DNA of 64,000 nucleotides from Patescibacteria group bacterium. Lineage in GTDB: Bacteria; Patescibacteriota; Patescibacteriia; Patescibacteriales; JBAZCA01. Positions 1,009-54,123 of the stretch are shown piece by piece (position 1 is the first letter of the stretch; each line of letters opens with the position of its first letter). The notes under the pieces are model-generated. The model ran no database searches and was not told the origin of the DNA. It saw only the letters and a list, made by a program, of their open reading frames with translations. Location of the stretch: assembly GCA_041661405.1 (NCBI GenBank), contig JBAZUL010000001.1:28403-92402 (forward strand), read 5' to 3'. A program made the position numbers and the translations under genes.

Positions 1009-1860
1009 TTATGAGTTAATATTATTTTCAAAATATTCTTCTTTTAACGAACCGTTTACATGGTCAATTGAATTCCAGGGTAAAATTATCACCACCGGCT
1101 TGGCTTTTTTACAGGCTTTTTCCATTATGCGATAATCACTTGATACTTCTCTTGCTCTTAAAGCGGCATCTGCTTTATGGGGTTCATCCACTTTAGCGAC
1201 TTCACTTTTCAGCCAACTCTCTAACTTTTTTTCGTTATCCAGAAAGGCGGGTTCACATAAAAAACCGACACACTTACCTTGAACCGCCAATTGTTTTCCT
1301 CCCGTTCTCCCCCAAAAATCAACTCTATTAAATGCATCTTTTGACGGAGCGGCCAGACTTGGCGATAAGCCTTTAGCTTCCATATACTTATACACTCCAA
1401 CCTGCCCGATTATTCCTTTTTTATGACCTGGCCATTTCGGAGATGAACTATTTGATTCAAGCCGATCAGCAATCCTGCCGCATAAACTAAAAAGATCAGA
1501 TAAATAATCTCTATTGCCGCCATGAGTTAATACAAATTTCGTTCCAATGTTCATAAATCTGGCAAAAGACAAGTTCAGTGTTCTACTTTCCGCCTCTCTG
1601 GCATCACCACTCAACTGAACCCCGTGCAAAGAATCATATCTATACTGATCTATTAAATCGCGTATCATCAATACTATAAATTCAGTTTCTTTATCGTGAT
1701 TGGAAAATTCTGCCAGAAATTTTTGCCGAATTTCCTTAAATTTTTCCAAACTTAGAGATTCAACGGCCGGCAAAGCCGAGAGCGCTTCTTCAATTTTTCT
1801 AAATCTTTCGTTATAATCATCCGCCATTGCAACTCGTTCTTGAATGGGAGCTTCTTTCAT
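1009..1860 (-). CDS. Hypothetical protein, no recognisable domain
   Basis: 283-aa uninterrupted ORF. Its start abuts the stop of the upstream gene at 1860. Visibly more AT-rich than flanking housekeeping genes. Confidence 0.5.
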   Translation of the reverse strand: MKEAPIQERVAMADDYNERFRKIEEALSALPAVESLSLEKFKEIRQKFLAEFSNHDKETEFIVLMIRDLIDQYRYDSLHGVQLSGDAREAESRTLNLSFARFMNIGTKFVLTHGGNRDYLSDLFSLCGRIADRLESNSSSPKWPGHKKGIIGQVGVYKYMEAKGLSPSLAAPSKDAFNRVDFWGRTGGKQLAVQGKCVGFLCEPAFLDNEKKLESWLKSEVAKVDEPHKADAALRAREVSSDYRIMEKACKKAKPVVIILPWNSIDHVNGSLKEEYFENNINS

Positions 1861-3122
1861 TATTTTATCCTTACATTTAATAAAACATTCTTTCCCCTCG
1901 CTTTAGTCGCGTAATAGCCGGTTAACAGCCCTACAGTTTTAAAAACATCGGATTCTTTTTTTATGCTGTCCATTTTTAACTCGGCCAAATTGATTTTTTC
2001 CGGAATTAACGTCTCAATCAAATCATTCTTAATTCGTAATTCGTAATTCGTAATTCTAACGAGCGTCGTCGGTCCGGTTAGCTCATCTAATTTTACCACA
2101 ATATCCCCATTTTTAGCTAGCTTTTCCAGTTTTTCGCTTTCGTCCCGATCCCGACCGACAATAACCATGACCCAATGAAAATTTATATCGGCTTCTATTC
2201 TGACATCTTTCAGATTTTTTCCAATAAGCGATTTTAATGAATTTTTTAAAGACAAGGTAATCTTTGGCGTATTTTGGCGTATTTTCGCGTCCCCGGCCAT
2301 TTCTAATTTCAGCCAAAATACCCGGCCATATTTTAAGAGTTCAACGTCTTCAGTTTTGCAGTCAGGACAATGGGTAATAATGTCCAAAACTTTTTTTCCG
2401 CCTTCCGGATCGGTTAATAAGCAACCTCCGGCGGGCGAAGGGTAATTTTTAATGCCAAATTTTTTGGCTAATTTCATCTGTGCTTCCCTTGACCGCCCTT
2501 TAATATCCAATAACCTTTCCCTCGTAACAAATCCATTTTTTTCCGCGTAAGTTTCCGGAAGAAGTTTTGCTGACAAAGGCCTTAAAACTTCCACTCCGGC
2601 CATTTTCGCGACCTTTTCCAAAGCTTCTTTATTCTGGGAAAACGGCCGCTGGCCGAGCACTTCTCCGGTCGCGATAAAATCGGAAAGTCTTTTATCACTT
2701 AAGTTGTCCGGAAACTTAATTCTCTCCCCCTTGGCAAGGGGGAGTCCGATCGCCGAAGGCGAGCGGGAGGGGGTGTGTTTTCCGGATGGGGGTGAGGTTA
2801 GTTCCGCGGACGCTTTTTTTAGATATTTCCCGGCCTCGCGGATCATCAGACTGTGGCAATCTATGCAAGGATTCATATTTTTTCCATAACCGCAGGACGG
2901 ACATTTTACGATTGACAAAATCTTTTCCGAAATATTTTCTTCAATTAAATCAATGCCGATTATTTTCGCGCTTTCCCGCGCCCGGCCGCAATCAAAAAAA
3001 TTACTGGAAAAACAAATCCCAATAACTTTTATCCCCTGATCCATGAGCACCCGGGCGGCGAGCATTGAATCCAGTCCGCCGGAAAAGAGAACCAGAGCCC
3101 TTACTGCTTTGCTTTTTCCCAT
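1860..3122 (-). CDS. PP-loop ATP pyrophosphatase, ThiI/MnmA-like tRNA thiolation enzyme lacking a THUMP domain
   Basis: N-terminal SGGLDS PP-loop. NPCIDCHSLMIREAG and ATGEVLGQRPFSQ resemble ThiI/MnmA adenylation-domain motifs. GGCLLTDP lies near the C-terminal third. The gene carries two in-frame repeat insertions (see repeats at 2030 and 2722). Confidence 0.65.
   Translation of the reverse strand: MGKSKAVRALVLFSGGLDSMLAARVLMDQGIKVIGICFSSNFFDCGRARESAKIIGIDLIEENISEKILSIVKCPSCGYGKNMNPCIDCHSLMIREAGKYLKKASAELTSPPSGKHTPSRSPSAIGLPLAKGERIKFPDNLSDKRLSDFIATGEVLGQRPFSQNKEALEKVAKMAGVEVLRPLSAKLLPETYAEKNGFVTRERLLDIKGRSREAQMKLAKKFGIKNYPSPAGGCLLTDPEGGKKVLDIITHCPDCKTEDVELLKYGRVFWLKLEMAGDAKIRQNTPKITLSLKNSLKSLIGKNLKDVRIEADINFHWVMVIVGRDRDESEKLEKLAKNGDIVVKLDELTGPTTLVRITNYELRIKNDLIETLIPEKINLAELKMDSIKKESDVFKTVGLLTGYYATKARGKNVLLNVRIK
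2030..2057. repeat. In-frame heptanucleotide tandem array (TAATTCG x3 + TAATTCT) inside the PP-loop ATPase gene
   Basis: The plus strand reads taattcg taattcg taattcg taattct. It encodes RITNYELRIKN on the minus strand. Confidence 0.85.
2722..2800 (+). repeat. GC palindrome + GGGGTGAGG element (type 3), in-frame inside the PP-loop ATPase gene
   Basis: CTCCCCCTTggcAAGGGGGAG, then TCGCCgaaGGCGA, then GGATGGGGGTGAGGTT. Translated on the minus strand as ELTSPPSGKHTPSRSPSAIGLPLAKGE. Confidence 0.7.
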
Positions 3123-3208
3123 ATTTTATAGAAAATTATCAGCTGAAATATTCGCATACTGACTATTGAAGACGCTTAAGCTTAACGAATGTTTCATTAA
3201 ATCACTTA

Positions 3209-4732
3209 TCACCCCTTATTTATTAGCCCAGCCAACCTCTCCCTGAGCCCCGGCCAAGTGCTGTAATATTCAAAACCGCTGCGGCTTCTAATTTTTTCGT
3301 AAACCATCATTTGCAATTCATCATCCTTGAAAACCAAACGTTCAACCGGATTATGCAGTTTACCTCCGGCAAACAGGCTGTAACGATCAATGTAGGAATC
3401 CAGTATTTCCCTTATATTTATACCCTGATTATACTTTGATAATTTCCATATAGCTTCTAAATATTTATTTTCCCATTGCTGTCCGGGAACCTTATTAATT
3501 TGACTGATTAAATTTTCCGGGATTGATCCGTAATAATCATTCTGCATTATTAGCGTAAGGGAGCGGCTCAGGAAATGGCAACGTTGGAAACTATAATCCT
3601 CGCGTTCCTCTAGTAAATCAGCCAATTTTGTCTTTAATTTTTTCGGCAGGGACAAAAAAGCCGGGCTTTTCCTAAGCTGTTCATAATTTTCCGCTTTATA
3701 AATGAGTCTTGATTCGTCATATTCATCAAAAAATTCGTCCAGCTGACTGGGCTTTAAACTTAATTTTTCATCAACTCTTTCCCTTGCAACTACTCTCTCA
3801 ACCAGTTCTTTGCTTATAAACTCCCCATAAAAATCCATAATTTTCATTAAACTTTTTTCAGTTACTATCCCTGCCTTTGCCAGCTCAAAAGCTATCGGTT
3901 CAGCTCTTGGGAGAGTGTAATCAAAATCATCCGCCCGCCCCTCCTCTTCGTTAAAATTTGCCCAAGTAACATCCGAAAAGGAGACCTGGACTTTTTTCGG
4001 ATCGTCAATATTGAAAAAAATATTCCAAGCGTGAGGATTGTCATTAGCCCTAAGGGGTGAGGTGGCGCTATAGTCAAAACCCATTTCATACAAACAATAT
4101 GAATTCTTTAGTGTCCCGGCGGGAGACTGGCAGGCTTTTAACGCGCTAAAAACTGTTTTTACGGTTGAAGCGAAAGTCCTGCAAACTCCGTTGCCAATCC
4201 AGTTTGGGTTATCCAAATTTTTCAGCCCCTGTTCCAATATCTCTATGGCCGTGCATTGATCCGAATAGGTGAGAAACTCCCTTTGATCCCCGACCATTTC
4301 TTTGGAAGCCTCATACGATTCAAACTCGTTATATTTAGTTAACTTTCTAACTATGGCTAACGATAACCCAAACAACTGTTTCGGCTCTAAAACGTCTAAT
4401 CTTGCTACGTTAAAATTCCGGGCGATATTTGCTCCTTCCCTCTTTAAAAAATCTTCCACAAACTTGTATATCTTTGCCTCCCACCCTTCTTCTTCAACCG
4501 TATTCTCAAAAACATAATTTTCTCTCGCGTTATGATCTCTCTCCTGCGCGATATACCTTTGATTCAAGATAGCCGCGATTGAATCCGGAATCGGTAATGT
4601 TTTTTCTGAACCTTGAGGATTAAAGCTGTCCCATTCTGAAAAAACAACTCTTGTGCTGTCTTTCAATTCTAAATCCAGTAACGGCTCCTTTTCTTTTTCC
4701 GATTGTCGCTCGCTTAAATTTTCAACCCCCAT
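3209..4732 (-). CDS. Transglutaminase-like cysteine peptidase domain protein
   Basis: 507 aa. GNGVCRTFA (Cys), NPHAWNIFF (His) and VSFSDVTW (Asp) match the Cys-His-Asp order and spacing of the transglutaminase-like core. No signal peptide seen. AT-rich. Confidence 0.55.
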   Translation of the reverse strand: MGVENLSERQSEKEKEPLLDLELKDSTRVVFSEWDSFNPQGSEKTLPIPDSIAAILNQRYIAQERDHNARENYVFENTVEEEGWEAKIYKFVEDFLKREGANIARNFNVARLDVLEPKQLFGLSLAIVRKLTKYNEFESYEASKEMVGDQREFLTYSDQCTAIEILEQGLKNLDNPNWIGNGVCRTFASTVKTVFSALKACQSPAGTLKNSYCLYEMGFDYSATSPLRANDNPHAWNIFFNIDDPKKVQVSFSDVTWANFNEEEGRADDFDYTLPRAEPIAFELAKAGIVTEKSLMKIMDFYGEFISKELVERVVARERVDEKLSLKPSQLDEFFDEYDESRLIYKAENYEQLRKSPAFLSLPKKLKTKLADLLEEREDYSFQRCHFLSRSLTLIMQNDYYGSIPENLISQINKVPGQQWENKYLEAIWKLSKYNQGINIREILDSYIDRYSLFAGGKLHNPVERLVFKDDELQMMVYEKIRSRSGFEYYSTWPGLRERLAGLINKG

Positions 4733-4771
4733 AAGCCATTGCCCTTTATAAAAAATAGAAAAACAACTAAC

Positions 4772-7700
4772 CTATCTCCTAGCTACCCCCAGCCAAACCT
4801 CCGCCCCCTCCACCTTAACATTTTTCTCCGCCAGCGCGCCTTCAATTTTTCCTTCGGCCAGACTGTCGGCTAGAGTATCTTTCAATATTCCGTCCTTATA
4901 ATTTTCAATCGCTTTTTTCACTTCTTCGCCGGATGTTTCATAATAAATTTCAATCCGGTCTTTAATTGTCAGTCCGGCATCTTTCCGAAGGCCGTTAACT
5001 AGCCGGACGATCTCGCGCTTAACACCCTCGGCTTTCAGCTCAGGGGTTATTTCCGTGTCTAATTCAACTTCCATATTGCCTTTATCATCTTTAAATACAA
5101 CTTCTTTCACATTCACTTCGTCTTTAACTAGCTCCAAAAATTCATGATCAATTGATAATTTATAATTAATAATTAATAATTGATTTAATGGTTGTCTTAC
5201 TTTTATCCCGGCCTCGTCTCTTTTTGCCAGCGCCAACTCTACGATATTTCTTACATCTTCCATCTTGGCGATTATTTGACTATCAACTCTCCCCGCCTCC
5301 GGCCAGCCTTCCAGATGCACGGATTTTTCTTCATCCTTAAAATCATTGCCGGTTACTTTCTGCCAAATTTGCTCGGCAATGAACGGCGTAAACGGCGCCA
5401 TAACTTTTGATAACTGCAATAACGCGAATCGCGTCGTATTGAGAGCCGCTTCTTTGTCTTTTTCATCATCAGCTTTAAACCGGTCTCTTGATCTTCTTAT
5501 ATACCAGGTTGATAGGTCATCAACAAAATCGGCAATCGGCCGGGTCGCTTGCGGCAAGTTATAATTTTCCATAGCCTTGGTAACTTCTTTTATAAGCTCA
5601 TTCAGCCTCGCCAATATCCATTGATCAAGAATATTTTTTTCCCTCTCCTTACTAATGAGAGGGTCGGGGTGAGGTTTGGAGGCAGAAGAGGCAAACATTT
5701 CGTAAAACTTATAGACATTCCAGACCAACATGTTTATTTTTCTAAGCGAATCCGCGACTCCTTTTTCAAAAAAATTAAGGTTTTCGGCGAGCATTACCGG
5801 CGAAGTTAAGAGATAATAGCGCAAAGCGTCAGCCCCGTATTTTTCAAAAATCAAAGTCGGATCCGGATAATTCTGGAGCCGTTTGGACATTTTTTTCCCG
5901 TCCTCGGCAAGCACGATTCCGTTGACAATAACATTTTTAAAAGCCGGTTTTTCTTTTATCGCCGTAGCAATGATGTGGAGGTAATAAAACCAGGCGCGGG
6001 TCTGATCAACGCCTTCGGCAATGAACTGGGCCGGAAAATTCTTTTCAAATTTTTTTTTATTCTCAAAAGGATAATGCTCCTGCGCGTAAGGCATGGACCC
6101 GGAATCAAACCAGGTATCTAAAACATCCGGAATCCTTTTCATTGTTCCTTTGCATTTTTCGCAGGAGAAAGTTATCTCATCAACAATATGCTTATGAATA
6201 TCAGTAATTTTCTGCCCGCTTAACTCTTCCAGTTCTTTAACCGAACCGATAACCTTTAGCTCTTCGCATTTTTCGCATTTCCAAATCGGAATAACCGAGG
6301 CCCAAAATCTTTGGCGGGATATAGACCAGTCGCGGGCGCCGGAAAGCCAATTGCCAAACCGGCCTTCCTTAATATGACCGGGCGACCAATTAATCTCTTC
6401 CGCCAGTTTCAAAGCCTTATCTTTGATGGCCAAAACTTTTACGAACCAGGAAGTGGTAGCGTAATTAATGAGCGGCGTTTCACAGCGCCAGCAATGCGGG
6501 TAGCTATGCTCAAATTTTTCTTTACTGAATAATAAATTTTTCTTCGCGAGGTATTTTATAATCTCCACGTCTGTCGCTAGAACATCATCTTTTGGCTTAA
6601 CATTCATGCCGGAAAAATCACCGGCTTCATCCTTAATACTGCCATCCATCCGAACGTGCTGGATAAAGGGCAGATTAAATTTTTTTCCAAGGTTGCGGTC
6701 GTCTTCGCCAAAAGCCGGAGCGATGTGGACGACTCCGGTTCCGTCTTCAGTCGTAACAAAATCGCCCGGATAAATTTTCCAGCCGTTCTCCCGATTTTCC
6801 AATTTTTCATTTTCAGCGTAATAGGGAAAAAGCGGTTTGTATTTTTTACCGACCAGTTCTTTTCCTTTAATATTATCCTCTATACTCCAGAAACGAGCAT
6901 CGGGTTTATTTGTTTGATTTTTAAATCGGTAACCATGCTCCGTTTTTTCCAATGAATCTTTTGAGGTTATAAAAAGACTGTTTTTCTCCTTGGCATAAAA
7001 ATCATCATTTCCTTCACTTTCAGTAAATTCGGCTTCAGGCTGAACTCTAATTTTTACATACTCAATATCCTCCCCTACCGCCAAAGCCGCGTTGCCGATT
7101 AAAGTCCAAGGTGTCGTTGTCCAGGCTAAGACATAAGTTCCTGGTTCGTCTTCCAATTCAAATTTTACTGTCGCCGTCAAATCTTTAATCATCTTATAGC
7201 CCTCGGCCACTTCCTGCTGGGAAAGCGTGGTCTCGCATCTCGGACAAATATGCATAGAGCGGTAATCTTCGTAAACCAATCCCCTGTCCCACAGTTCCTT
7301 AAAAACCGACCAAACCGACTCCATGAACGGAAGATCCATGGTTTTATAAGAATTCTCCATGTCCGCCCAGCGCCCTAAGCGCGGTATTACTTTTTTCCAC
7401 TCATCAACATAAGCCAAAACCTTGGAACGGCATTTTTCGTTAAACGCGGCCACGCCCATTTCCTCAATATCCTTCTTGCTCTTAGAGCCCATTTCCTTTT
7501 CAACGATGTTTTCAATCGGCAGGCCATGGCAATCCCAGCCCCATTTCCGCTCCACCCTAAAACCCCGCATTGTCCAAAAACGAGGAACAGCGTCTTTCAT
7601 AACCGAAGCGACAATATGGCCGTAATGCGGAGTACCGGTCGCGAACGGCGGGCCATCGTAAAAAACATAATCGCCTTTGGGTTTTTCACCAGCCGGTTTT

Positions 7701-7837
7701 TCTACCGATTTTTCAAAAGTTTTCGCCCGATTCCAAAATTCCAAGACTTCCTCTTCCATTTTCGGAAATGGACTTATTCCGCGAAGCCCTGCCGAGGCGG
7801 GATTGACTGAGGCTTTTTTATCTTTTTCATTAGTCAT
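4772..7837 (-). CDS. ileS: Isoleucine--tRNA ligase
   Basis: 1021 aa with HIGH-type motif PHYGHIVA and KMSKS-type KMSKR. Class I editing-type synthetase architecture with CxxC pairs. Confidence 0.97.
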   Translation of the reverse strand: MTNEKDKKASVNPASAGLRGISPFPKMEEEVLEFWNRAKTFEKSVEKPAGEKPKGDYVFYDGPPFATGTPHYGHIVASVMKDAVPRFWTMRGFRVERKWGWDCHGLPIENIVEKEMGSKSKKDIEEMGVAAFNEKCRSKVLAYVDEWKKVIPRLGRWADMENSYKTMDLPFMESVWSVFKELWDRGLVYEDYRSMHICPRCETTLSQQEVAEGYKMIKDLTATVKFELEDEPGTYVLAWTTTPWTLIGNAALAVGEDIEYVKIRVQPEAEFTESEGNDDFYAKEKNSLFITSKDSLEKTEHGYRFKNQTNKPDARFWSIEDNIKGKELVGKKYKPLFPYYAENEKLENRENGWKIYPGDFVTTEDGTGVVHIAPAFGEDDRNLGKKFNLPFIQHVRMDGSIKDEAGDFSGMNVKPKDDVLATDVEIIKYLAKKNLLFSKEKFEHSYPHCWRCETPLINYATTSWFVKVLAIKDKALKLAEEINWSPGHIKEGRFGNWLSGARDWSISRQRFWASVIPIWKCEKCEELKVIGSVKELEELSGQKITDIHKHIVDEITFSCEKCKGTMKRIPDVLDTWFDSGSMPYAQEHYPFENKKKFEKNFPAQFIAEGVDQTRAWFYYLHIIATAIKEKPAFKNVIVNGIVLAEDGKKMSKRLQNYPDPTLIFEKYGADALRYYLLTSPVMLAENLNFFEKGVADSLRKINMLVWNVYKFYEMFASSASKPHPDPLISKEREKNILDQWILARLNELIKEVTKAMENYNLPQATRPIADFVDDLSTWYIRRSRDRFKADDEKDKEAALNTTRFALLQLSKVMAPFTPFIAEQIWQKVTGNDFKDEEKSVHLEGWPEAGRVDSQIIAKMEDVRNIVELALAKRDEAGIKVRQPLNQLLIINYKLSIDHEFLELVKDEVNVKEVVFKDDKGNMEVELDTEITPELKAEGVKREIVRLVNGLRKDAGLTIKDRIEIYYETSGEEVKKAIENYKDGILKDTLADSLAEGKIEGALAEKNVKVEGAEVWLGVARR
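5151..5185. repeat. In-frame heptad array (ATTGATA ATTTATA ATTAATA ATTAATA ATTGATT) inside ileS
   Basis: Five 7-nt units on the plus strand. They encode ..NQLLIINYKLSID.. in IleRS. Confidence 0.7.
5641..5676 (+). repeat. GC palindrome + GGGGTGAGG element (type 3), in-frame inside ileS
   Basis: CCCTCTCcttactaatGAGAGGG followed by TCGGGGTGAGGTTT. Encodes KPHPDPLISKEREK in IleRS. Confidence 0.65.
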
Positions 7838-7868
7838 AATGGCGAAAATTTACTGAATTATATGGTTT

Positions 7869-7897
7869 ATTCTATTCTAAAATTAGCTGAATGTCAA
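7869..7897 (-). promoter_or_regulatory. Predicted sigma70-type promoter of ileS
   Basis: The minus strand reads TTGACA - 17 nt - TAGAAT, about 30 nt upstream of the ATG at 7837. Confidence 0.6.
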
Positions 7898-7963
7898 AAC
7901 GCCGAGCGTGTGAGCAAGGCATCTCGAACCCCGCATTTTGCGGGGAAGGGATCTCGCGCATAC
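7892..7963 (+). repeat. Promoter-associated structured repeat, type 1, copy R1
   Basis: TGTCAAAACGCCGAGCGTGTGAGCAAGGCATCTCGAA-CCCCGCattttGCGGGG-AAGGGATCTCGCGCATACG. The left terminus is the -35 of the ileS promoter. Confidence 0.7.
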
Positions 7964-8040
7964 GAACAGACGTCCTAAGCCGCATACACTTATATTATAC
8001 AGGTATTGTTATAACTTGTTGAACCCGCTGAACAAAAATC

Positions 8041-8070
8041 TTGACATAACTCCCTATTTATGCTTAAATT
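8041..8070 (+). promoter_or_regulatory. Predicted promoter reading toward the lipoprotein gene
   Basis: TTGACA - 18 nt - TAAATT. The transcript would run through the type 2 hairpin element. Confidence 0.4.
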
Positions 8071-8199
8071 AAGGGTCATTTCCAAAACCTTTATTGATTG
8101 GCTGACAATCAGGAATGATCGTTATTATTCCATAAAAGCAGTGGAAATGCGCTCTTTAAAAAACGCAAAACTCGCGCAAGCCAGAAGAATTATACTATT

Positions 8200-8312
8200 G
8201 TCATCCTGAACGGAGCGGAGCCCGCCCGAACGACGTTCAGTCGGGCGGGGATCTCGCATTCAAAACAACTAACCCGAGATTCTTCACTCCACTATGTTTC
8301 GTTCAGAATGAC
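8200..8312. repeat. Terminal-inverted-repeat hairpin element, type 2, copy 1
   Basis: GTCATCCTGAACG...CGTTCAGAATGAC termini. Internal hairpins CCCGCCCGA..TCGGGCGGG and ATCTCG..CGAGAT. Lies between a predicted promoter (8041) and the lipoprotein gene. Confidence 0.7.
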
Positions 8313-8420
8313 GGCTGTTTTATGTCTTTTGACTTGTGTGAGTTTTGTTTTATTTCTTTTTATGTTTACATCTTAAGGGCCGGCGGTGTTATCCACCCGC
8401 TTGGCTCAAGGAGAAGGTTC

Positions 8421-8816: not shown

Positions 8817-9230
8817 CTACTCTTGATACCCACCGCCGCCTGTTCCGCCCCACGGTAAAGCGTTAAAGACAAAATAAGTTATAGAATAAGAGGCAATTAT
8901 GATAATGAGGCCGATGACGGCGTGGCGGATCTGGTCCAGCGATTCTTTGGTTTTCTGCTCGTCGCCGCGGGCGTTCAAATATTTCCAGCCGGCTAAAATA
9001 ATAAGGATGATAAAAATAATTCCAAGCAAAGCCATAAATCCAAGAACAAGTGAAGCGATTACGGCGCCAATGCTGGCCGTGCTACCGGTCTCATAACCGC
9101 CTTCTTTGGCCACATCGCTGGCAAAAGTTTTGACATCGTTGGCGAATGAACTGTTAAGAAATTGCGCCGAGCAGAAAAGCGGAAACAGGGAAAGTATCAG
9201 ATACCAAATTTTAACCGCGATTTTTTTCAT
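8817..9230 (-). CDS. TrbC/VirB2-like (T4SS-pilin-type) small membrane protein, paralog 1 of 6
   Basis: Signal peptide, variable region, then two TM helices flanking the conserved loop AGWKYLNARGDEQKTKESLDQIRHAVIGLIIII. Gly-rich C-terminus. Confidence 0.75.
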   Translation of the reverse strand: MKKIAVKIWYLILSLFPLFCSAQFLNSSFANDVKTFASDVAKEGGYETGSTASIGAVIASLVLGFMALLGIIFIILIILAGWKYLNARGDEQKTKESLDQIRHAVIGLIIIIASYSITYFVFNALPWGGTGGGGYQE

Positions 9231-9231
9231 G

Positions 9232-9660
9232 TTATTTTATTATATACGTCGCCACGAAAGCCCAAAGGGCGAACGCGCTGATAATAATAATCAGCCCGAT
9301 TATCGCCTGGCGGATGGTGGCCAGGGACTTTTTTACTTTTTCCTCTTCGCCGTGGGCGGACATGTATGTATAACCGGCGTAAATTATGAAAATCAAAAAC
9401 ATAACTCCGAGGACTGACAAAAACCCGCCGATAGCCGAGCCAAAAATTTTTCTTAAAGTGGTGGCGTCCGTATTTTCGGCATAACCGGCGCCCTCCGCCA
9501 CCAGCTTCATTTTTTCCGTTAAAGCATTTTTTGTCCCAGTATTTCCGGTTTGCGCCAAGGTTAAATTTGGCAAAACAGCCAGACTAAAAAATACCAAACT
9601 CATAAAGAATATCCGCATCGCGTAAATTTTTCCTTTATCAAAAATTAAATTCATAATCAC
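9232..9660 (-). CDS. TrbC/VirB2-like small membrane protein, paralog 2 of 6
   Basis: Same architecture, with loop AGYTYMSAHGEEEKVKKSLATIRQAIIGLIIII. The start could instead be the Met at 9618 (MRIFFMSLVFF signal peptide). Confidence 0.75.
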   Translation of the reverse strand: MIMNLIFDKGKIYAMRIFFMSLVFFSLAVLPNLTLAQTGNTGTKNALTEKMKLVAEGAGYAENTDATTLRKIFGSAIGGFLSVLGVMFLIFIIYAGYTYMSAHGEEEKVKKSLATIRQAIIGLIIIISAFALWAFVATYIIK

Positions 9661-10058
9661 TTTAATAAAAACGATAAAGCGCCGGTCGCAAAAATGGAAA
9701 GCGCGTAAGCCGCCACTACGATTAACAGTCCGATGGTCGCATTCCTTAATATGCTCTGAGCCTTTTTAACTCTTTCTTCATTGCCCATGGACTGCATCCA
9801 CTCAAACCCGCCGTAGATAATAAGGCATAAAAATATAATACCCAGCGCGTAAAGCATAAGCTGGACTATCTGGCCGATGTATTTATATATCGCGTCCGGT
9901 TCAGAATCCTCTTTGTAACCGGCGCCTTGATTAAAAGTTTTTAAATTCTTGTCAAAAGCGTCATTTAGGGCTTGCGCCTGAAGCGGCCGGATATTGACGG
10001 CGGCGAGTGCCGTTGATCCTATAACCAATATAAAAAAAAGATGTAGGAGATATTTCAT
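9657..10058 (-). CDS. TrbC/VirB2-like small membrane protein, paralog 3 of 6
   Basis: Signal peptide MKYLLHLFFILVIGSTALA and loop GGFEWMQSMGNEERVKKAQSILRNATIGLLIVV. Its stop overlaps the paralog 2 start. Confidence 0.75.
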   Translation of the reverse strand: MKYLLHLFFILVIGSTALAAVNIRPLQAQALNDAFDKNLKTFNQGAGYKEDSEPDAIYKYIGQIVQLMLYALGIIFLCLIIYGGFEWMQSMGNEERVKKAQSILRNATIGLLIVVAAYALSIFATGALSFLLK

Positions 10059-10062
10059 AGGC

Positions 10063-10551
10063 TTATTTCGCGGCCAGGATGCTTCCGATATAAGCAGTGA
10101 TCGCGTAGGCGCCGAGAATAATAATCAGGCCGATCATGGCGTCGTTAAACATCTGCTGAGCTTTTTTAACTTCTTCGGCATTGCCCCGGGCCATCATCCA
10201 CATGAATCCGGCGTAAATCATGAGCCCGAGAAATATTATACCCAGGAAAGATAAGCCAATCCCGACGAAATATCCCGCCCGCTGGTATAAGTCAACTGTT
10301 CCCGGCTCAGCGCCGTAACCTTCTTTAAAAGTTTCTAACAACCCGGCCGTTGTCTTTCCAGTGAGTCCGGTGGTAGGTGGAGCAGTAGTCTCGGCCAAAA
10401 CCGCCGAAACCTGAAAAATGAAAAAAAATAAAAAAACCGCGAGAGGGATTAATGCCTGGCGAAAATTAAAGAATGATTTCATAAACAATATTCGCTCTGA
10501 ATATTTATAGTCCGTTACTGCCTTAAACACCACTGATAAAGTCATGTCCAA
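10063..10551 (-). CDS. TrbC/VirB2-like small membrane protein, paralog 4 of 6
   Basis: Loop AGFMWMMARGNAEEVKKAQQMFNDAMIGLIIIL. The likely true start is the Met at 10482 (MKSFFNFRQALIPLAVFLFFF signal peptide). Confidence 0.75.
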   Translation of the reverse strand: MDMTLSVVFKAVTDYKYSERILFMKSFFNFRQALIPLAVFLFFFIFQVSAVLAETTAPPTTGLTGKTTAGLLETFKEGYGAEPGTVDLYQRAGYFVGIGLSFLGIIFLGLMIYAGFMWMMARGNAEEVKKAQQMFNDAMIGLIIILGAYAITAYIGSILAAK

Positions 10552-26326: not shown

Positions 26327-26377
26327 CTCCCCCCGCCCGCGACGGTCAGGGGCGGGAGAGGGGTTGGGGGTGAGGGT
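26327..26377 (+). repeat. GC palindrome + GGGGTGAGG element (type 3), intergenic copy between folD and glyA
   Basis: CCCCGCCCgcgacggtcaGGGGCGGG, then AGAGGGGTTGGGGGTGAGGGTC. Confidence 0.65.
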
Positions 26378-26378
26378 C

Positions 26379-27623
26379 TTAGATTGAAGGAATCGGGAAC
26401 GCAAGGCACATGTCGCGCACTTCTTTTTTTATCTGCTCAAGCACTTCGGACTCATCACGGTGCTCAATCGCGGCGTTAATCCAGGTAACAATTTTTTTGA
26501 TTTCTTCTTCTTTCATACCCCGGGTAGTTATGGCCGGAGTGCCGAAACGGACGCCGGACGGATTGGCCGGCGGATTGGGATCGTTAGGAATGGTTGAGCG
26601 GCTGGACGAAATCCCTACTTTATCCAGGATTATTTCCGTATCCTTACCTCTCAGATCTTTTGAAGTCATATCAACGACCATGAGATGGTTGTCGGTTCCG
26701 TCGGATACAATGCGATAACCCAGTTTTTTCAATTCCTCGGCCATGAGCTTGGCGTTCTTTATCACTTGCGCCGCGTATTCCTTAAACTCCGGCTGGAGCG
26801 CTTCGCCGTAAGCGACGGCTTTGGCGGCTTGGATGTGGTCGTGCGGCCCGCCCTGCATGCCCGGGAATACCGCCCGATCCACCTGCTTGGCGAATTGCTC
26901 TTTGCACATGATCATGGCGCCGCGCGGCCCGCGAAGTGTCTTATGGGTAGTAGTCGTAACAACGTCAAACAAAGGCACCGGATTGTTCATTAACCCGGCG
27001 GCAATCAGTCCGGCTGTATGGGCGATATCGGCGAAAGTAAACGCCCCGACTTCATCGGCGATTTCTTTGAATTTTTGCCAGTCAATTTCCCGGCTATAGG
27101 CGCTGTAGCCGGCGACAATCATTTTCGGTTTTTCTCTTAAAGCCACTTCCCGGACTTTTTCCATGTCTAATTTCCCGACTTCCGGGTCAAGCTCATATTG
27201 GACAAAATTGTAAAGCATGCCGGAAAAATTTACCGGGTGGCCGTGTGAAAGGTGGCCGCCGTGATCCAGGCGCAAACCGAGCACTTTATCACCCGGTTTT
27301 AAAAAAGCGAAGTAAACCGCCGCGTTGGCCGGAGAACCGGAAAGAGGCTGGACGTTAACATGCTCGGCATTAAATAATTTTTTCGCCCGATCAATAGCGA
27401 TGTCGTCCACTTCGTCAATGTTCTGATTACCGCCGTAATAGCGGTGTCCGCCATAGCCTTCGGAATATTTATTGGTCAGAACCGTGGCCATGGCTTCCAT
27501 AACCGCTTTTGACGCGTAATTTTCCGAAGCAATAAGCTCCATTTCTTCCGACTGCCGCTTCATTTCCTTTTTTACCGCGTTCATGATCGCGGGGTCGCTT
27601 TGGGCTAAATTTGGGTAGTCCAT
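26379..27623 (-). CDS. glyA: Serine hydroxymethyltransferase
   Basis: 414 aa. ELIASENY and VTTTTHKTLRGPRG (PLP lysine motif). Confidence 0.97.
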   Translation of the reverse strand: MDYPNLAQSDPAIMNAVKKEMKRQSEEMELIASENYASKAVMEAMATVLTNKYSEGYGGHRYYGGNQNIDEVDDIAIDRAKKLFNAEHVNVQPLSGSPANAAVYFAFLKPGDKVLGLRLDHGGHLSHGHPVNFSGMLYNFVQYELDPEVGKLDMEKVREVALREKPKMIVAGYSAYSREIDWQKFKEIADEVGAFTFADIAHTAGLIAAGLMNNPVPLFDVVTTTTHKTLRGPRGAMIMCKEQFAKQVDRAVFPGMQGGPHDHIQAAKAVAYGEALQPEFKEYAAQVIKNAKLMAEELKKLGYRIVSDGTDNHLMVVDMTSKDLRGKDTEIILDKVGISSSRSTIPNDPNPPANPSGVRFGTPAITTRGMKEEEIKKIVTWINAAIEHRDESEVLEQIKKEVRDMCLAFPIPSI

Positions 27624-27718: not shown

Positions 27719-27747
27719 ATCCTAAGCCAATCACGGCCATTTGTCAA
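27719..27747 (-). promoter_or_regulatory. Predicted promoter of glyA
   Basis: The minus strand reads TTGACA - 17 nt - TAGGAT. Confidence 0.55.
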
Positions 27748-27806
27748 AATGATTTGCGTGCGAGCAAATCATCCCGTAGCCGAAGGCGTGCGGGAACTCT
27801 CGCACA
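27742..27806 (+). repeat. Promoter-associated structured repeat, type 1, copy R2
   Basis: TGTCAAAATGATTTGCGTGCGAGCAAATCATCCCGTAGCCgaaGGCGTGCGGGAACTCTCGCACA. The left terminus is the -35 of the glyA promoter. Confidence 0.7.
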
Positions 27807-30234: not shown

Positions 30235-30263
30235 ATTCTCTTATAAAAAACAGGTTAAGTCAA
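30235..30263 (-). promoter_or_regulatory. Predicted promoter of the ferredoxin gene
   Basis: The minus strand reads TTGACT - 17 nt - GAGAAT. Confidence 0.5.
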
Positions 30264-30321
30264 ACTGATTCGCGCGCAAGTAAATCATCCTGAGCCAAAA
30301 AACAAAGGATCTGCTTTGACA
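30259..30321 (+). repeat. Degenerate type 1 repeat with both termini (GTCAAA ... TTTGACA)
   Basis: GTCAAACTGATTCGCGCGCAAGTAAATCATCCTGAGCC...GGATCTGCTTTGACA. The termini coincide with the -35 boxes of the divergent ferredoxin and proS promoters. Confidence 0.55.
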
Positions 30322-31603: not shown

Positions 31604-32394
31604 ACATAACCAAAAGACTATCCATCGGCATCTTCGGCTTTGGCCACATGGGTCAGGCTATTTTTAAATTGCTAAAAGCCGATGAAAAATTCGGCAGTTG
31701 CCGGTTTTTTATCTGTTCTCTTGGCGTAAACAAAGTCAAAGGCGCGGAATGCGTTCTTAGCCTAAAAACTCTCGGCGAAAAATCCGATATAATCTTTTTC
31801 TGCGTTAAGCCGCAGGAATTTAAAAACTTGGCCGTAGAAAAAATCGGCTCGCCAAAAACCATTATCATTTCCATCATGGCTGGCGTTAAATTAAGCGCTG
31901 TTCGCCGGATGTCCAATACGAAAAAAATCATCCGCGCCATGCCCAACCTTGCCCTGGCGATCGGAGAAAGCATGACCGGCTGGCACGCTGACAAAAAACA
32001 ATTTTCCCGGACAGAACTGCTGACGATAAAAAATATTTTTAAAACTTTCGGCCAGGACATTTTCTTAAAAGACGAAAAACAGATTAACGCCGTTACCGCC
32101 GTTTCCGGTTCGGGTCCGGCTTATGTTTTTCTTTTCATAAACGCCCTGGCAAGCGCGGCCATAAAGCTCGGTTTTAGCCGAAGCGAGGCTCTCTTACTCG
32201 TCAGGCAAACTTTCGCCGGGTCGCTCAAATATTCAGAAGGCGAAAATGATTTAGCCGGACTGATAAAAAAAGTAACCTCAAAAAAAGGCACGACCGAAGC
32301 GGCCTTAAAAAGTTTAAACTCCGGCCGATTTTACAAACAATGGGAACAAGCCGTAAAAAAAGCTTATGAAAGAGCTGAGGAATTATCAAAATAG
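31600..32394 (+). CDS. proC: Pyrroline-5-carboxylate reductase
   Basis: 264 aa. N-terminal GFGHMG Rossmann motif, RAMPN and GSGPAYVF motifs. Start overlaps the proS stop. Confidence 0.85.
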   Translation: MNITKRLSIGIFGFGHMGQAIFKLLKADEKFGSCRFFICSLGVNKVKGAECVLSLKTLGEKSDIIFFCVKPQEFKNLAVEKIGSPKTIIISIMAGVKLSAVRRMSNTKKIIRAMPNLALAIGESMTGWHADKKQFSRTELLTIKNIFKTFGQDIFLKDEKQINAVTAVSGSGPAYVFLFINALASAAIKLGFSRSEALLLVRQTFAGSLKYSEGENDLAGLIKKVTSKKGTTEAALKSLNSGRFYKQWEQAVKKAYERAEELSK

Positions 32395-33718
32395 ACAACA
32401 AACGACCCGCTTCGCCGGAGCGAGAGCGAGGCGAGCAGAAAACCTGCCTCGTCGGCAGGCAGGCAGACAACAGAAAAAAATCTTATCGGTTAAACATGCT
32501 TCAGCCGGACTTATTCATCTTTCTTTAAAACAAAAAAGTGAAGCGCTCAGCTCTTTGGCAATCGCTTTAGTAAAAAATTCCGCTCAAATTCTTAAAGCCA
32601 ATAAAGCCGATATCAAGGCCGCGAAAAAATACGGTAAAAGCGATAGTTTTATTGAACGCCTGGCTTTAGACAAAGAAAAAATAAAAAACATGGCTGATTC
32701 GCTCAGAGCAATGGCAAAACTTCCCGATTATATCGGCGAGGTCATGGAAGAAAAAAGCCGGCCGTCAGGAATCAGGATTAAAAAAGTCCGGGCGCCCCTG
32801 GGGCTCGTCGCCATAATTTACGAATCCCGACCGAACGTTACGGTTGACGCTTTTTCTTTGGCTTTTAAAAGCGGAAATGGAATAATCCTAAAAGGCGGCA
32901 AAGAAATAAAAAATACTAACTTAGAGCTCGTAAAAATCATCAAAGCCGCGCTTAAAAAACACGGTGTCAATCCCGAAATAATCCTTGATTTGACCGGCCT
33001 CGGAAACCCGGAAACCCTAGAACTGATGGCTGACAAAAATATTGACTGCTTAATTCCCCGCGGCGGCAAAGGCCTTATAGAGTTCGTCCGCGAGAACGCC
33101 AAAATTCCGGTTATCATTACCGGCGCTTCGGTCGTCCATGCTTATGTTGACGAAGACGCGGATTTAGAACTCGCCCGGCGGGTAATTATTAACGCTAAGA
33201 CCCGGAGAGTTTCAATCTGCAACGCTTTGGATGTTTTACTTTTACACAAAAAAATCAGCCAGCCCGTACTGGGATTACTGGCCAAAGATTTATCGGCCAA
33301 AGGCGTAGAAATTAGAGCGAACCAGACTGCTTACCGAATTTTAAAAAAACTTAACTACCCAAAATTAAAACCAGCCGGAACGGCTGATTTTGATACGGAA
33401 TTTTTGGATTACATTCTGGCGGTAAAAATCGTGAATGATTTGGATAAAGCGATAAAGCACATTCAAACGCATACTTTAGGCCACAGCGAGGCCATAATCA
33501 CCAGGTCAAAATCCAAAGCCGAAAAATTTTTTAAAGCCATAGACGCGGCCTGCCTTTACCATAACACTTCAACCCAATTTTCCGACGGCGGCGAATTTGG
33601 ATTAGGCTCGGAAATCGGCATCTCCACCCAAAAACTCCATGCCCGCGGCCCCTTTGCCCATGAAGCGCTCACGACCTACAAATACATTATTGAGAGTAAG
33701 GGAATAACCAGAAGGTAA
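32366..33718 (+). CDS. proA: Gamma-glutamyl phosphate reductase
   Basis: 450 aa as listed in the track. YESRPNVT, CNALDVLL and HSEAIIT motifs. The first ~35 aa are Arg-rich, encoded by palindromic repeat sequence, and have no in-frame ATG after them, so the start is uncertain. Confidence 0.88.
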   Translation: MKELRNYQNRQQTTRFAGARARRAENLPRRQAGRQQKKILSVKHASAGLIHLSLKQKSEALSSLAIALVKNSAQILKANKADIKAAKKYGKSDSFIERLALDKEKIKNMADSLRAMAKLPDYIGEVMEEKSRPSGIRIKKVRAPLGLVAIIYESRPNVTVDAFSLAFKSGNGIILKGGKEIKNTNLELVKIIKAALKKHGVNPEIILDLTGLGNPETLELMADKNIDCLIPRGGKGLIEFVRENAKIPVIITGASVVHAYVDEDADLELARRVIINAKTRRVSICNALDVLLLHKKISQPVLGLLAKDLSAKGVEIRANQTAYRILKKLNYPKLKPAGTADFDTEFLDYILAVKIVNDLDKAIKHIQTHTLGHSEAIITRSKSKAEKFFKAIDAACLYHNTSTQFSDGGEFGLGSEIGISTQKLHARGPFAHEALTTYKYIIESKGITRR

Positions 33719-36520: not shown

Positions 36521-36583
36521 CTTTTTTCAGAGGCGTGCTCCCTGCCTGCCGGCAGGCAGGTAACCAGCTGAGCTATGGGCGCC
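36521..36583 (-). pseudogene. Partial duplicate of the tRNA-Ile 5' half interrupted by a 20-nt perfect palindrome
   Basis: GCGCCCATAGCTCAGCTGGTTA + CCTGCCTGCCGGCAGGCAGG + GAGCACGCCTCTGAAAAAAG. It has no T arm and no acceptor 3' strand. Confidence 0.6.
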
Positions 36584-37814: not shown

Positions 37815-37843
37815 AATATATACAAAAACCGACTGACTGTCAA
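37815..37843 (-). promoter_or_regulatory. Predicted promoter of the DHH-like gene
   Basis: The minus strand reads TTGACA - 17 nt - TATATT. Confidence 0.6.
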
Positions 37844-37900
37844 ACGCCGAGCGTGTGAGCAAGGCGTCCCGCAGCCAAAGGCATGCGGGATCTCTGCGCA
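37838..37900 (+). repeat. Promoter-associated structured repeat, type 1, copy R4
   Basis: TGTCAAACGCCGAGCGTGTGAGCAAGGCGTCCCGCAGCCaaaGGCATGCGGGATCTCTGCGCA. The left terminus is the -35 of the promoter for the 36636..37781 gene. Confidence 0.7.
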
Positions 37901-40108: not shown

Positions 40109-40137
40109 ATTATATCATGCTAATCTAAGCATGTAAA
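40109..40137 (-). promoter_or_regulatory. Predicted promoter of the RNHCP-uvrB unit
   Basis: The minus strand reads TTTACA - 17 nt - TATAAT. Confidence 0.6.
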
Positions 40138-40185
40138 TGCCGAGCGTGCGAGCGAGGCATCCCGCCGGCGAAGCTGGCGGGATCT
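40132..40185 (+). repeat. Promoter-associated structured repeat, type 1, copy R5
   Basis: TGTAAATGCCGAGCGTGCGAGCGAGGCATCCCGCCggcgaagctGGCGGGATCT. The left terminus is the -35 (TTTACA) of the RNHCP gene promoter. The right end lies 6 nt before tRNA-Val(CAC). Confidence 0.7.
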
Positions 40186-40191
40186 AACATA

Positions 40192-40265
40192 GGACAATTA
40201 GCTCAGTTGGTTAGAGCGCACGCTTCACACGCGTGAGGTCGGAGGTTCGAGCCCTCCATTGTCCA
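40192..40265 (+). tRNA. tRNA-Val (anticodon CAC)
   Basis: GGACAAT TA GCTC AGTTGGTTA GAGC G CACGC TTCACAC GCGTG AGGTC GGAGG TTCGAGC CCTCC ATTGTCC A. 74 nt. Confidence 0.9.
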
Positions 40266-43309: not shown

Positions 43310-44899
43310 TTAAGCGAACTTCTTCTCCATATACGTCCCTCTGAGCCTGTATCCAAACTTCCGGTAATAACCCCGCGCCCCGACTCCGGAAATAATCATC
43401 ATTTTTTTAAAACCATTCTGCCGGGCGATTTTCTCCGCTTCGGCGAGTAGCATCTTCCCGAGACCCGAATGTTGAACCCGGCCGGCCGCTCCGACCGGCG
43501 CCAGCTCGCCGTAAACGTGCAATTCGCGGATAATGGCGGCCACGCCCGATAGCCTCAGCCGGCAAAACCCGTAAATAATTTTCCCAGCCTGTGCCGAGCT
43601 TGCCGAGACAGAATCCACGCTTATAAAATACTCATCTCCTCCCGATGCCTTATAATTTAAAATTCTTAATTCATAATTCTTAATTTTTAATTCTTTTGGC
43701 TCCCGGCATCTTATGCAATCGCACTTCACGCCAAGGTCTTTCATTACCTGGCGCAAATTAGTTATCTTATTGCCGGCCATGATGGACTCGCCCGGAATGT
43801 CGCGGATTAATCTTATTATCCGAACATAAGGCGGAACAGCTTTTTTACAGTCAATTATCAATTGCTTTAAAACTTTATCGCTGTACGTCTTATATTTTCC
43901 GGCTTTCCACCATCTAAAAAGCAAACTGCCGCGCGTGACCACGGTCGGATAAAATTTAATCTGATCCGGCTGGAATCGTTCGTCTGAAAAGAGCTTTTTA
44001 AACATAGCTAAATCCTTTTTGGCCGTTGCCCCGGGCAGTCCGGGCATGAGATGGTAAGTTACTTTAAAACCGAAATCTTTTAATAGCTTTGTCGCCTTAA
44101 CAGTTTCCGCGACCCCGTGTCCGCGTTTATTTATTTTCAGGATTTTATCGTCAATCGCCTGAACGCCTAATTCCACGCGGGTGCAACCGAGTTCCCGCAT
44201 CTCGCGCAATTCTTTTTCATCAATATAATCAGGCCGGGTTTCAAGGGTTAACCCGATAATCTTATATTTAGCCTTTTCGTTTTTCTTTTGCTCGCCTTGC
44301 AACTGACGACTAAGAACGGAAATTTTTAACTTAGCATTGTATTTCTGTTTTTTGTTGTCTGTTTTCTGTTGTCTAAAATTGTTCGCCGCCCGAAAACACT
44401 CCTTAATATACCAATATTTATACGCCGTTGGTAGAACGCTCCATGTTCCGCCAATCACGATAATTTCTATCTTTTCCGGCTCATGCCCGTTGGCTTCAAG
44501 GGCGCTAAGCCTCAGCTGGACTTGCAAATACGGATTATAATTACAGCGGATAGCCCGCATCACCGCCGGTTCGTTGGATAAATAACTCTGCGGCACGTCC
44601 TTTTCCGTCGGGCAGTAAACGCATTTTCCCGGGCACGCGTAAGGCATGGTAAGAACCGCGACCGGCGCGATACCGGACATGGTTCTTATTTCCCGCTTGC
44701 GGAGTATCCGCCTTAAAATGGCGCTACTAGAACCTGACCCTTTTAACTCTCTTAAAATATCCGAATTTTTAAAAATCGGCAAACCGTATTTTTTTGCGAT
44801 TTTTCTCTTAGCCGCCATCAGCTCCGAGGCTGTTGTTATCGGCGATTTTATCAATTCATTCACAGCTTCCTGAAAATCGTTTTTTATTGAATTTTTCAT
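43310..44899 (-). CDS. elp3: Elp3-type radical SAM / GNAT tRNA uridine(34) acetyltransferase
   Basis: 529 aa. Radical SAM cluster motif CPGKCVYCP and a C-terminal GNAT region (LHVYG...HSGLGKMLLAEAEKIARQNGFKKMMIISGVGARGYYRKFGY). Carries an in-frame heptad-repeat insertion. Confidence 0.85.
   Translation of the reverse strand: MKNSIKNDFQEAVNELIKSPITTASELMAAKRKIAKKYGLPIFKNSDILRELKGSGSSSAILRRILRKREIRTMSGIAPVAVLTMPYACPGKCVYCPTEKDVPQSYLSNEPAVMRAIRCNYNPYLQVQLRLSALEANGHEPEKIEIIVIGGTWSVLPTAYKYWYIKECFRAANNFRQQKTDNKKQKYNAKLKISVLSRQLQGEQKKNEKAKYKIIGLTLETRPDYIDEKELREMRELGCTRVELGVQAIDDKILKINKRGHGVAETVKATKLLKDFGFKVTYHLMPGLPGATAKKDLAMFKKLFSDERFQPDQIKFYPTVVTRGSLLFRWWKAGKYKTYSDKVLKQLIIDCKKAVPPYVRIIRLIRDIPGESIMAGNKITNLRQVMKDLGVKCDCIRCREPKELKIKNYELRILNYKASGGDEYFISVDSVSASSAQAGKIIYGFCRLRLSGVAAIIRELHVYGELAPVGAAGRVQHSGLGKMLLAEAEKIARQNGFKKMMIISGVGARGYYRKFGYRLRGTYMEKKFA
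43661..43695. repeat. In-frame heptad array (AATTCTT AATTCAT AATTCTT AATTTTT AATTCTT) inside elp3
   Basis: Five 7-nt units. They encode KELKIKNYELRILNYK on the minus strand. Confidence 0.8.
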
Positions 44900-51032: not shown

Positions 51033-51108
51033 TTATGAAGAATTATGAATCAAGAATTATGAATTACGGGTTGTGATTCCCTTGATTCATTATTCATAAT
51101 TCATTATT
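51033..51108. repeat. Heptad-built hairpin between the ymdB stop and the HU start
   Basis: aattatg aatcaag aattatg aattacg (loop) tgattca ttattca taattca ttattca. Confidence 0.7.
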
Positions 51109-54061: not shown

Positions 54062-54117
54062 TTGACAAGTAATTTGCATGTGAGCAAATTATCCCGCAGC
54101 CGCAGGCGTGCGGGATC
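54062..54117 (+). repeat. Promoter-associated structured repeat, type 1, copy R6
   Basis: TTGACAAGTAATTTGCATGTGAGCAAATTATCCCGCAGCCgcaGGCGTGCGGGATCC. Confidence 0.6.
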
Positions 54118-54123
54118 CATTCT

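Follow-up and report, generated by a model that had tools for sequence, protein, structure and literature searches.

How do G/C-rich palindromes come to lie, in frame, inside enzyme genes of a bacterium, and what kind of DNA are they? The question is raised by a 64-kb stretch, hereafter the window, of a metagenome-assembled genome (MAG) from the Patescibacteria (Candidate Phyla Radiation, CPR). The window consists of low-GC DNA (0.41-0.49) with genes mostly on the minus strand, and a sequence-only reading of it had reported three copies of a palindromic element: at 2722-2800 in the gene of a PP-loop (ThiI-like) ATPase, at 5641-5676 in ileS, which encodes isoleucyl-tRNA synthetase (IleRS), and at 26327-26377 between folD and glyA. 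The three sequences are present at these positions, folD and glyA do flank the third one, and both genic copies form part of intact open reading frames (ORFs) that run through them, yielding exactly the peptides that had been quoted (Table 1). The motif is a known one, already described in E. coli and many other bacteria. Judged by block structure and sequence identity, the elements are variants of the BoxC/PIT/TMECO family of intrastrand-triplex repeats rather than a new kind of element. It is probable, in our view, that copies of this family, some of them since decayed, entered genes of Patescibacteria, were kept at permissive loops and are translated there.

The TMECO motif, earlier named BoxC and PIT element (Holder et al., 2015; PMC4666352, which also cites older studies of Bachellier and of Hoyne/Maher), has the published pattern 5'-CCCTCNCCC N3-6 GGGNGAGGG N3 GGGNGAGGG-3' and, as single-stranded DNA, forms a purine-motif intrastrand triple helix in vitro. 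The layout is common to E. coli and the window: a C-block, a loop, GGGAGAGGG, a 3-nt loop and GGGTGAGGG. The blocks of the family are a C-block, a complementary G-block and a mirror-image G-block (GGGTGAGG); a C-block and two G-blocks in this order are seen in both the ileS and the intergenic copy and, with extra modules, at 2724-2797 in the PP-loop gene. Block 3 mirrors block 2, and the purine-motif triads (G.G, A.A, T.A) score 7/7 in the ileS copy and 10/10 in the intergenic copy, as E. coli copies scored alike. Watson-Crick pairing between blocks 1 and 2 is complete in the ileS copy (7/7) and in hairpin A of the PP-loop copy (9/9); the intergenic copy reaches only 6/10, its pairing being taken over by a nested 7-bp hairpin. 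The second loops (TCG, TTG, CCG) resemble the E. coli types. Window positions 5657-5674, within the ileS copy, match TMECO no. 12 of E. coli K-12, CCCTCTCCCTTCCAGGGAGAGGGTCGGGGTGAGGGT (PMC4666352, Table 1; locus read directly in NC_000913), at 18 of 18 bases. As in E. coli, the repeat is dispersed in multiple copies, has no associated transposase and is sited in regions of length variation. The 9-mer GGGGTGAGG, which the sequence-only reading had taken for a separate tail behind the palindrome, turns out to be the third, mirror-image block of the triplex motif.

The window copies also depart from the published description. Their host phylum is the Patescibacteria, and the TMECO count in PMC4666352 took in proteobacterial genomes; the first loop is 9-18 nt long, often with a nested hairpin, as opposed to the published 3-6 nt; the stems of the ileS copy are 7 nt; and the C-block is degenerate in several copies, including the intergenic one. 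Furthermore, two of the three window copies, and many of those in relatives, are in frame inside genes, whereas all 23 copies of E. coli K-12 are intergenic (PMC4666352). Since the strict pattern fails on the window copies (first loop, stems and C-block), although its GGGNGAGGG-N3-GGGNGAGGG half is present at 26354-26376, we file them as a variant of the family and not as canonical TMECO. The family itself is known and very widespread: among the matches listed (one genome per species), the core pattern CCTCACCCCNNCCCCTCTCCC occurs in more than 120 DNA stretches from many phyla, including Xanthomonas, Chloroflexota, Planctomycetota, Cyanobacteria, Leptospiraceae, Elusimicrobia and others. A pattern for the long-loop subfamily matched two loci in metagenomes; the one examined, L126, was again a locus of the type found in L001, one of four relatives introduced below. 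A BLAST search of E. coli genomes with the intergenic copy gave no match, the query being too short and of low complexity. A G-quadruplex reading was set aside, as published nuclear magnetic resonance data favour the triplex for this motif (PMC4666352).

Table 1. Triplex-motif copies, their parts and other hairpin features in the 64-kb window
Feature	Positions	Strand	Composition or context	Basis
Composite insert in PP-loop ATPase gene (1860-3122, minus strand)	2713-2800	+	encodes roughly residues 108-137, within about LTSPPSGKHTPSRSPSAIGLPLAKGERIKF	protein alignment, syntenic DNA
Hairpin A of the insert (C-block and G-block)	2724-2744	+	CTCCCCCTT GGC AAGGGGGAG; 9 bp	fold
Hairpin B of the insert	2745-2768	+	TCCGATCGCC GAAG GCGAGCGGGA	belongs to another repeat, whose other copies in the window are intergenic
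G-blocks of the insert	2765-2797	+	GGGAGGGGG (2765-2773) and GGGGGTGAGG (2788-2797), 14 nt apart	
Exact GGGGTGAGG, not an element	4054-4062	+	ordinary coding sequence of a 507-aa ORF; no hairpin	
Short triplex-motif copy in ileS (gene 4772-7837, minus strand)	5641-5674	+	CCCTCTCCTTACTAATGAGAGGGTCGGGGTGAGGTT	hairpin, K-12 identity
ileS copy, C-block	5641-5647	+	CCCTCTC	
ileS copy, first loop	5648-5656	+		
ileS copy, G-block 1	5657-5663	+	GAGAGGG; closes the 7-bp hairpin 5641-5663	
ileS copy, second loop and G-block 2	ending 5674	+	TCG; GGGTGAGG	
Intergenic triplex-motif copy	26327-26376	+	upstream of folD; separated by bases 26377-26378 from the glyA stop codon (26379-26381)	
Intergenic copy, C-block	26327-26334	+	degenerate	read from sequence
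Intergenic copy, nested hairpin	26332-26356	+	7 bp	read from sequence
Intergenic copy, G-block 1, loop, G-block 2	26354-26376	+	GGGAGAGGGG (26354-26363); TT; GGGGGTGAGGG (26366-26376)	
Two hairpins of other repeat families	32403-32463	+	first ~35 codons of the proA ORF (32366-33718)	fold, z = -2.8

The 9-mer GGGGTGAGG occurs four times in the window, always on the plus strand, against 0.22 occurrences expected, and none of 100 shuffles reached four. With one mismatch allowed there is no excess in the window, so that the signal rests on the exact copies. In each of the three named copies a C-rich/G-rich hairpin lies upstream of the motif; that the motif follows the palindrome directly, as had been stated, does not apply in the PP-loop gene, where 43 nt (2745-2787) with a second hairpin and the first of two G-blocks intervene. 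The 8-mers that had been quoted as the third palindrome are not complementary; the actual pair is CCCGCCC/GGGCGGG, of 7 bp. The fourth exact match, at 4054 and not among the copies first reported, was considered as a further element and rejected as a chance match: the orthologs of this region in relatives L004 and L001 are equal in length, L004 reads GCCACTTCGCCTTTCAGG, the homologous peptides are ATSPLRAND and ATSPFRTDD, and there is no hairpin.

The conserved unit is DNA and not peptide. The codons that cover the motif are ACC TCA CCC in the PP-loop gene, CCT CAC CCC in ileS and CAC CCC ACC CCC AAC CCC in the PP-loop gene of L001, and the intergenic copy of the window, an intergenic copy of L001 (4386-4440) and the PP-loop insert of L001 are ~80% identical over 50 nt; it is thus a dispersed DNA repeat which is read in different frames and also lies between genes. 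The L001 intergenic copy belongs to an inverted pair (4296-4440) with one second loop of the TT type and the other of the CC type, a combination of two loop types resembling that of the E. coli inverted pairs, which combine type A with type B copies (PMC4666352). This L001 pair is placed between two paralogous ORFs of the T4SS_pilin type. The genic inserts are GC-rich within loci of GC 0.37-0.44, and in all genic copies of the window and L001 the C-rich strand is the sense strand. This orientation has no stop in any frame and the opposite one has a TGA in one frame; the bias is not significant with so few copies, and homologs P0159 and P0197 have the other orientation. An Rfam scan of the whole window returned tRNAs only, with no intron or ribozyme family matched, and the elements are therefore not explained by any known RNA family.

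To place the genic copies in their lineage, we compared the window at the DNA level with four syntenic relatives, L001, L002, L003 and L004, the closest of which, judged by flanking genes, is L004 (LemA 98%, the 507-aa protein hyp507 83%). In the PP-loop gene the alignment bears out a lineage-specific, in-frame insert. The hot spot measures 66 aa in the window and 56 aa in L001, both with a GC-rich element, whereas L002, L003 and L004 have an AT-rich stretch that encodes 49 aa, so that the insert is absent even from the closest relative; of 24 aligned homologs, about half lack the segment from 'AGKYL' to 'DFIATGEVLGQRP' or have a very short one. The DNA fold of the region (2715-2805) has z = -3.6, with hairpins of -17 to -19 kcal/mol. 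The insert is composite. Its two spaced G-blocks are a third-strand block of the triplex motif displaced from its partner, and hairpin B belongs to another repeat: its 17-nt core (pattern GCCGAAGGCGNGCGGGA) is found at 2752 and again at 27779, 37874 and 54099, all on the plus strand, against 0.09 expected, and these three further places in the window are intergenic. The insert is therefore built from dispersed repeat modules of the genome itself. In the AlphaFold2 model of the PP-loop protein (mean predicted local distance difference test score, pLDDT, 77.5), residues 109-143, which cover the insert, score below 50 and have no secondary structure, and the insert is thus predicted to be a disordered loop at a structurally permissive site.

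A direct repeat, GTTGTCCGGA (2703-2712) and GTTTTCCGGA (2777-2786), matching at 9 of 10 bases, flanks most of the composite insert, and the homologous place in L004 shows one TTCCGGAAC only. Going by its sequence, this repeat could have arisen as a target-site duplication or at a junction of microhomology.

The IleRS copy is a more complex case. The window enzyme is of the eukaryote-like type, and the site of the element is the linker joining the catalytic and anticodon-binding domains, which is hypervariable among 112 Patescibacteria homologs and is of similar length in the best PDB match, a eukaryotic-type IleRS. Across the copy the sense strand of ileS reads K-P-H-P-D-P-L-I-S-K-E-R-E, and the hairpin fold on the plus strand is not exceptional (z = -1.25). 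Measured from FYEMF to NILDxW, the linker is 25 aa in L002 (IleRS 80% identical to that of the window) and 27 aa in L003 (78%), neither with an element, 30 aa in the window, with its shortened copy, and 42 aa in L001 (54%), which has a full copy with a nested hairpin at exactly the same spot. The L004 linker has no element. This is not a clean insertion: the linker, itself hypervariable, is only 3-5 aa longer than in the closest relatives, and the window copy has the look of a remnant that became shortened. As for the site common to the window and L001, independent insertion at one hot spot and patch-wise exchange are both possible.

Several further observations concern ileS and its surroundings. 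The allele is discordant with its neighbours: window IleRS is 78-80% identical to that of L002 and L003 and 51-54% to that of L001 (5275-8352) and L004 (5307-8341), yet L004 is the closest relative by LemA. L001 IleRS has HYAT where the window has HYGH (HIGH motif), and in L004 ileS is split into two ORFs. In the intergenic region upstream of ileS (8200-8312), GTCATCCTGAACGGAGCGGAG... and ...CTCCACTATGTTTCGTTCAGAATGAC form an inverted pair in which a GC hairpin (8221-8249) is nested; similar peptides (SVILNEAERSEES..RSFAA), apparent translations of this element, are inserted in the IleRS of the Patescibacteria homologs P0127, P0203, P0206, P0225 and P0239. In addition, the 7-mers (AATTACG)n and (AATTCCA)n form AT-rich tandem repeats in the window (2025-2057, 43648-43694 and 51035-51110) and in the L001 locus 5275-8352, and are read in frame as NYELRIKN and NSKFQIPNSK. 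They lie in the window PP-loop gene, as do those of many distant PP-loop homologs at the same position, and in two inserts of L001 IleRS; conserved genes would thus contain a second class of translated repeat DNA.

Similar inserts recur in more distant lineages. We listed insertions of at least 6 aa from alignments of 120 PP-loop and 112 IleRS homologs and found that hairpin-derived peptides (PPLLIRRGG, PSPSQGEG, TPNPSP..GEG and PSPLEGEGRGEVG) cluster at few positions; peptides of the hairpin type, such as PPLLIRRGG, are present at the PP-loop hot spot in ~20-25 of the 120 homologs. In two cases the DNA bears this out: at the same hot spot, P0017 (PP-loop protein 49% identical, locus GC 0.37) carries two or more units in tandem that start with CCTCACCCC, and P0185 IleRS has, all in frame, a unit in the same linker, a second one following 'DRFK' and a hairpin close to the N-terminus. 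These distant Patescibacteria thus appear to carry independent copies at the same hot spots. Coding copies are not unique to this phylum, although the published description, centred on E. coli, does not report any: in a Leptospiraceae MAG (L074, 2082-4556), one unit lies in frame in a gene of the xanthine dehydrogenase family with full Pfam domains. Matches from other phyla fall in long stop-free frames in 59% of cases versus 88% of random positions, a depletion that is uninformative in 65%-GC genomes. In an Anaerolineales MAG (L075, 6244-6396), five tandem triplex-motif units with 33-nt spacing are found beside an aconitase-like ORF.

How the units would have reached the genes can be outlined as follows. 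As single-stranded DNA, a three-block unit (C-block, G-block and mirror G-block) can fold into a triple helix of the purine motif that is based on a hairpin. Along with small GC hairpin modules of other kinds, such units would have entered protein-coding genes of this Patescibacteria lineage by insertion, gained through copying or recombination; candidate routes are repair- or replication-associated copying, illegitimate recombination or a trans-acting enzyme. In a gene-dense genome, many gained units would land in genes, and a genic copy would survive only if its net length change is a multiple of three, its reading frame is free of stops and its site is a structurally permissive loop or inter-domain linker, so that selection would be the cause of the hot spots. 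Surviving copies would be translated into Pro/Ser/Gly-rich disordered peptides, probably neutral ones, and would later decay through deletion and point mutation.

Several points weigh against this account. The window copies showed neither a mobilising enzyme nor terminal repeats nor a target-site duplication free of ambiguity, and the sole candidate direct repeat, a single example, is spaced by 74 nt, which is not a multiple of three. There are only three copies in the 64 kb, none identical, so there is no sign of recent activity. Of the proposal that this is a mobile palindromic element tolerated in coding sequence, the tolerated repeat largely stands, but mobility is not supported, as no transposase, clean duplication or identical recent copies were found. 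In IleRS, the window copy adds just the few residues given above, and its 3' arm overlaps the S-K-E-R codons common to the window and L001, because of which the hairpin could be partly coincidental or a product of gene conversion. The window and L001 share the linker element even though their enzymes are 54% identical, and hence simple vertical descent or a single insertion does not explain the sharing. Translation through the elements is predicted from the reading frames, and a stable triplex has not been detected in vivo in E. coli in published work.

A stronger version would make the triplex repeats an active, pan-bacterial agent of insertion or recombination which repeatedly remodels the same loops and linkers of essential enzymes in gene-dense Patescibacteria, alongside the hairpin and 7-mer modules and possibly via patch-wise allele exchange. 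We regard this version as rather unlikely. If true, it would reveal a major, so far undescribed source of CPR protein length variation and offer a tractable handle on the spread of a long-puzzling repeat. To our knowledge, BoxC/PIT/TMECO has been known since the 1990s, with neither a function nor a spreading mechanism found.

The recurrence of elements at the same loops and linkers in separate lineages could also mean that they are functional cis-acting signals, which pause replication, transcription or ribosomes at domain boundaries, or act as recombination hot spots that vary surface loops. The position of the IleRS site between two domains, the stable hairpins of the PP-loop insert and the mosaic look of the ileS alleles near the element would fit such a role, as would the published association of the motif with local rearrangement or genomic instability in E. 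coli, where no association with mobile elements was noted. However, the closest relatives do without elements at both sites; the sequence, length and exact position of the elements vary between lineages; the motif had no promoter, terminator or polymerase effect in E. coli in vivo (PMC4666352); and a selection filter for permissive loops accounts for the recurrence without invoking function. A signalling role is accordingly unlikely. Even less can be said for the absence of any element, that is, for fast-evolving Pro/Gly/Ser-rich linkers whose codon composition would have produced palindromes and 9-mer as by-products. Length and sequence at both sites are hypervariable among homologs, one exact 9-mer is a chance match and the IleRS fold is unexceptional on the plus strand, but against this stand the full 18-base match to an E. 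coli repeat, a motif read in different frames, the excess of both the 9-mer and the hairpin module, and GC-rich inserts in loci of much lower GC. The ~80% identity between the intergenic copy of the window and the genic and intergenic copies of L001 largely refutes this explanation, which we consider very improbable.

GC-rich, structured inserts in an AT-rich genome superficially resemble the mitochondrial GC clusters and byps, and might be removed or skipped before the mature protein is made, by RNA excision, translational bypassing (as in mitochondrial 'byp' and T4 gene 60) or protein splicing. Yet every genic copy examined is in frame and free of stops, as predicted by selection on the translated sequence and not required by bypassing, no intron or ribozyme family is matched anywhere in the window and the inserts are far too short for inteins, which makes removal highly implausible. 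Finally, although the window is part of a MAG and assemblers can be misled by short GC-rich repeats, we give almost no credence to repeat-induced chimeric joins from assembly or binning as the source of the in-gene copies, given that NCBI, JGI and ENA record the identical PP-loop protein, on two contigs, that the ORFs are intact and the elements flanked by conserved sequence on either side, and that independent assemblies of relatives have elements in the same loops.

Among repeats known to enter genes, the Rickettsia palindromic elements (RPE) offer the closest functional parallel. They were reportedly described by Ogata and colleagues in 2000 as selfish palindromic repeats lying in frame in protein-coding genes. 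RPEs are ~100-150 bp long and AT-rich and are not known outside Rickettsia. In both cases, a small-genome bacterium has a palindromic repeat that is found between genes and in frame inside conserved genes, where it is tolerated at surface-exposed, permissive positions; the PP-loop insert of the window is likewise in frame at a permissive position and absent from orthologs. By contrast, the present units are 35-50 nt long, up to 80 nt by direct reading, G/C-rich, arranged in a three-block triplex layout and found in many phyla. Size and host set the two apart, and the resemblance is functional only. The REP/REPIN repeats, GTAG- and CGTC-tagged palindromes mobilised by RAYT transposases (PMC3733652), are also short (20-40 bp), GC-rich, dispersed and often in inverted pairs. 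However, there is no GTAG or CGTC tag at the hairpin ends of the three window copies, REPs have no counterpart of the third, mirror-image block and are extragenic by definition, and no RAYT was seen for the window in a scan of just the few needed genes. Non-autonomous repeats or palindromes that lie within ORFs, are read through and add short peptides to proteins are further known as the QMITEs of Coxiella burnetii (PMC5896051), which are prokaryotic MITEs (transposable elements of the miniature inverted-repeat type), and as the coding palindromes or GC clusters of mitochondrial genes (PMC6649704). MITEs have terminal inverted repeats and target-site duplications that derive from an insertion sequence; the present elements showed no ends of this kind.

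What appears to be new is the coding context in Patescibacteria, the recurrence at hot spots and the long nested loops, the family itself being long known. BoxC/PIT/TMECO thereby extends to the CPR, in frame in IleRS, a ThiI-like ATPase and other enzymes, and Patescibacteria gain an analogue of the 'coding palindromes' of Rickettsia. In practical terms, Pro/Gly/Ser-rich 'inserts' and N-terminal extensions of CPR proteins would often be translated repeat DNA and not lineage-specific functional domains, and presence/absence polymorphisms among close relatives could help to trace the gain and loss of repeats.

An extension of this kind is found at the start of proA. The sequence-only reading had assigned its N-terminal codons to palindromic repeat sequence; this is correct for the ORF and the hairpins are real, but they belong to other families than the triplex element. 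The gene upstream is proC and not proB, and its end is overlapped by the proA ORF. Homology to solved ProA structures starts at about residue 40, and there is no in-frame ATG, GTG or TTG between the hairpins and the conserved domain; to judge from the sequence, the extension may really be translated, or a non-canonical start may be used. A CCTGCC..GGCAGG hairpin is also present at 36541-36560, between tRNA genes. A double-hairpin repeat family, which begins with TGTCAAA and ends with GGGATCTC(T)CGC, has copies at 7893-7960, 27743-27800, 30259-30300, 37838-37895, 40131-40185 and 54063-54170, all on the plus strand; its second hairpin is also found in the PP-loop insert, as hairpin B, and one copy stops ~10 nt upstream of a tRNA gene (40192-40265). 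Upstream of ileS, small paralogous ORFs form a run (8817-10300) that is marked by repeat family D5, and their counterparts in the relatives, for instance in the L001 region 1974-4883, are called T4SS_pilin (PF18895).

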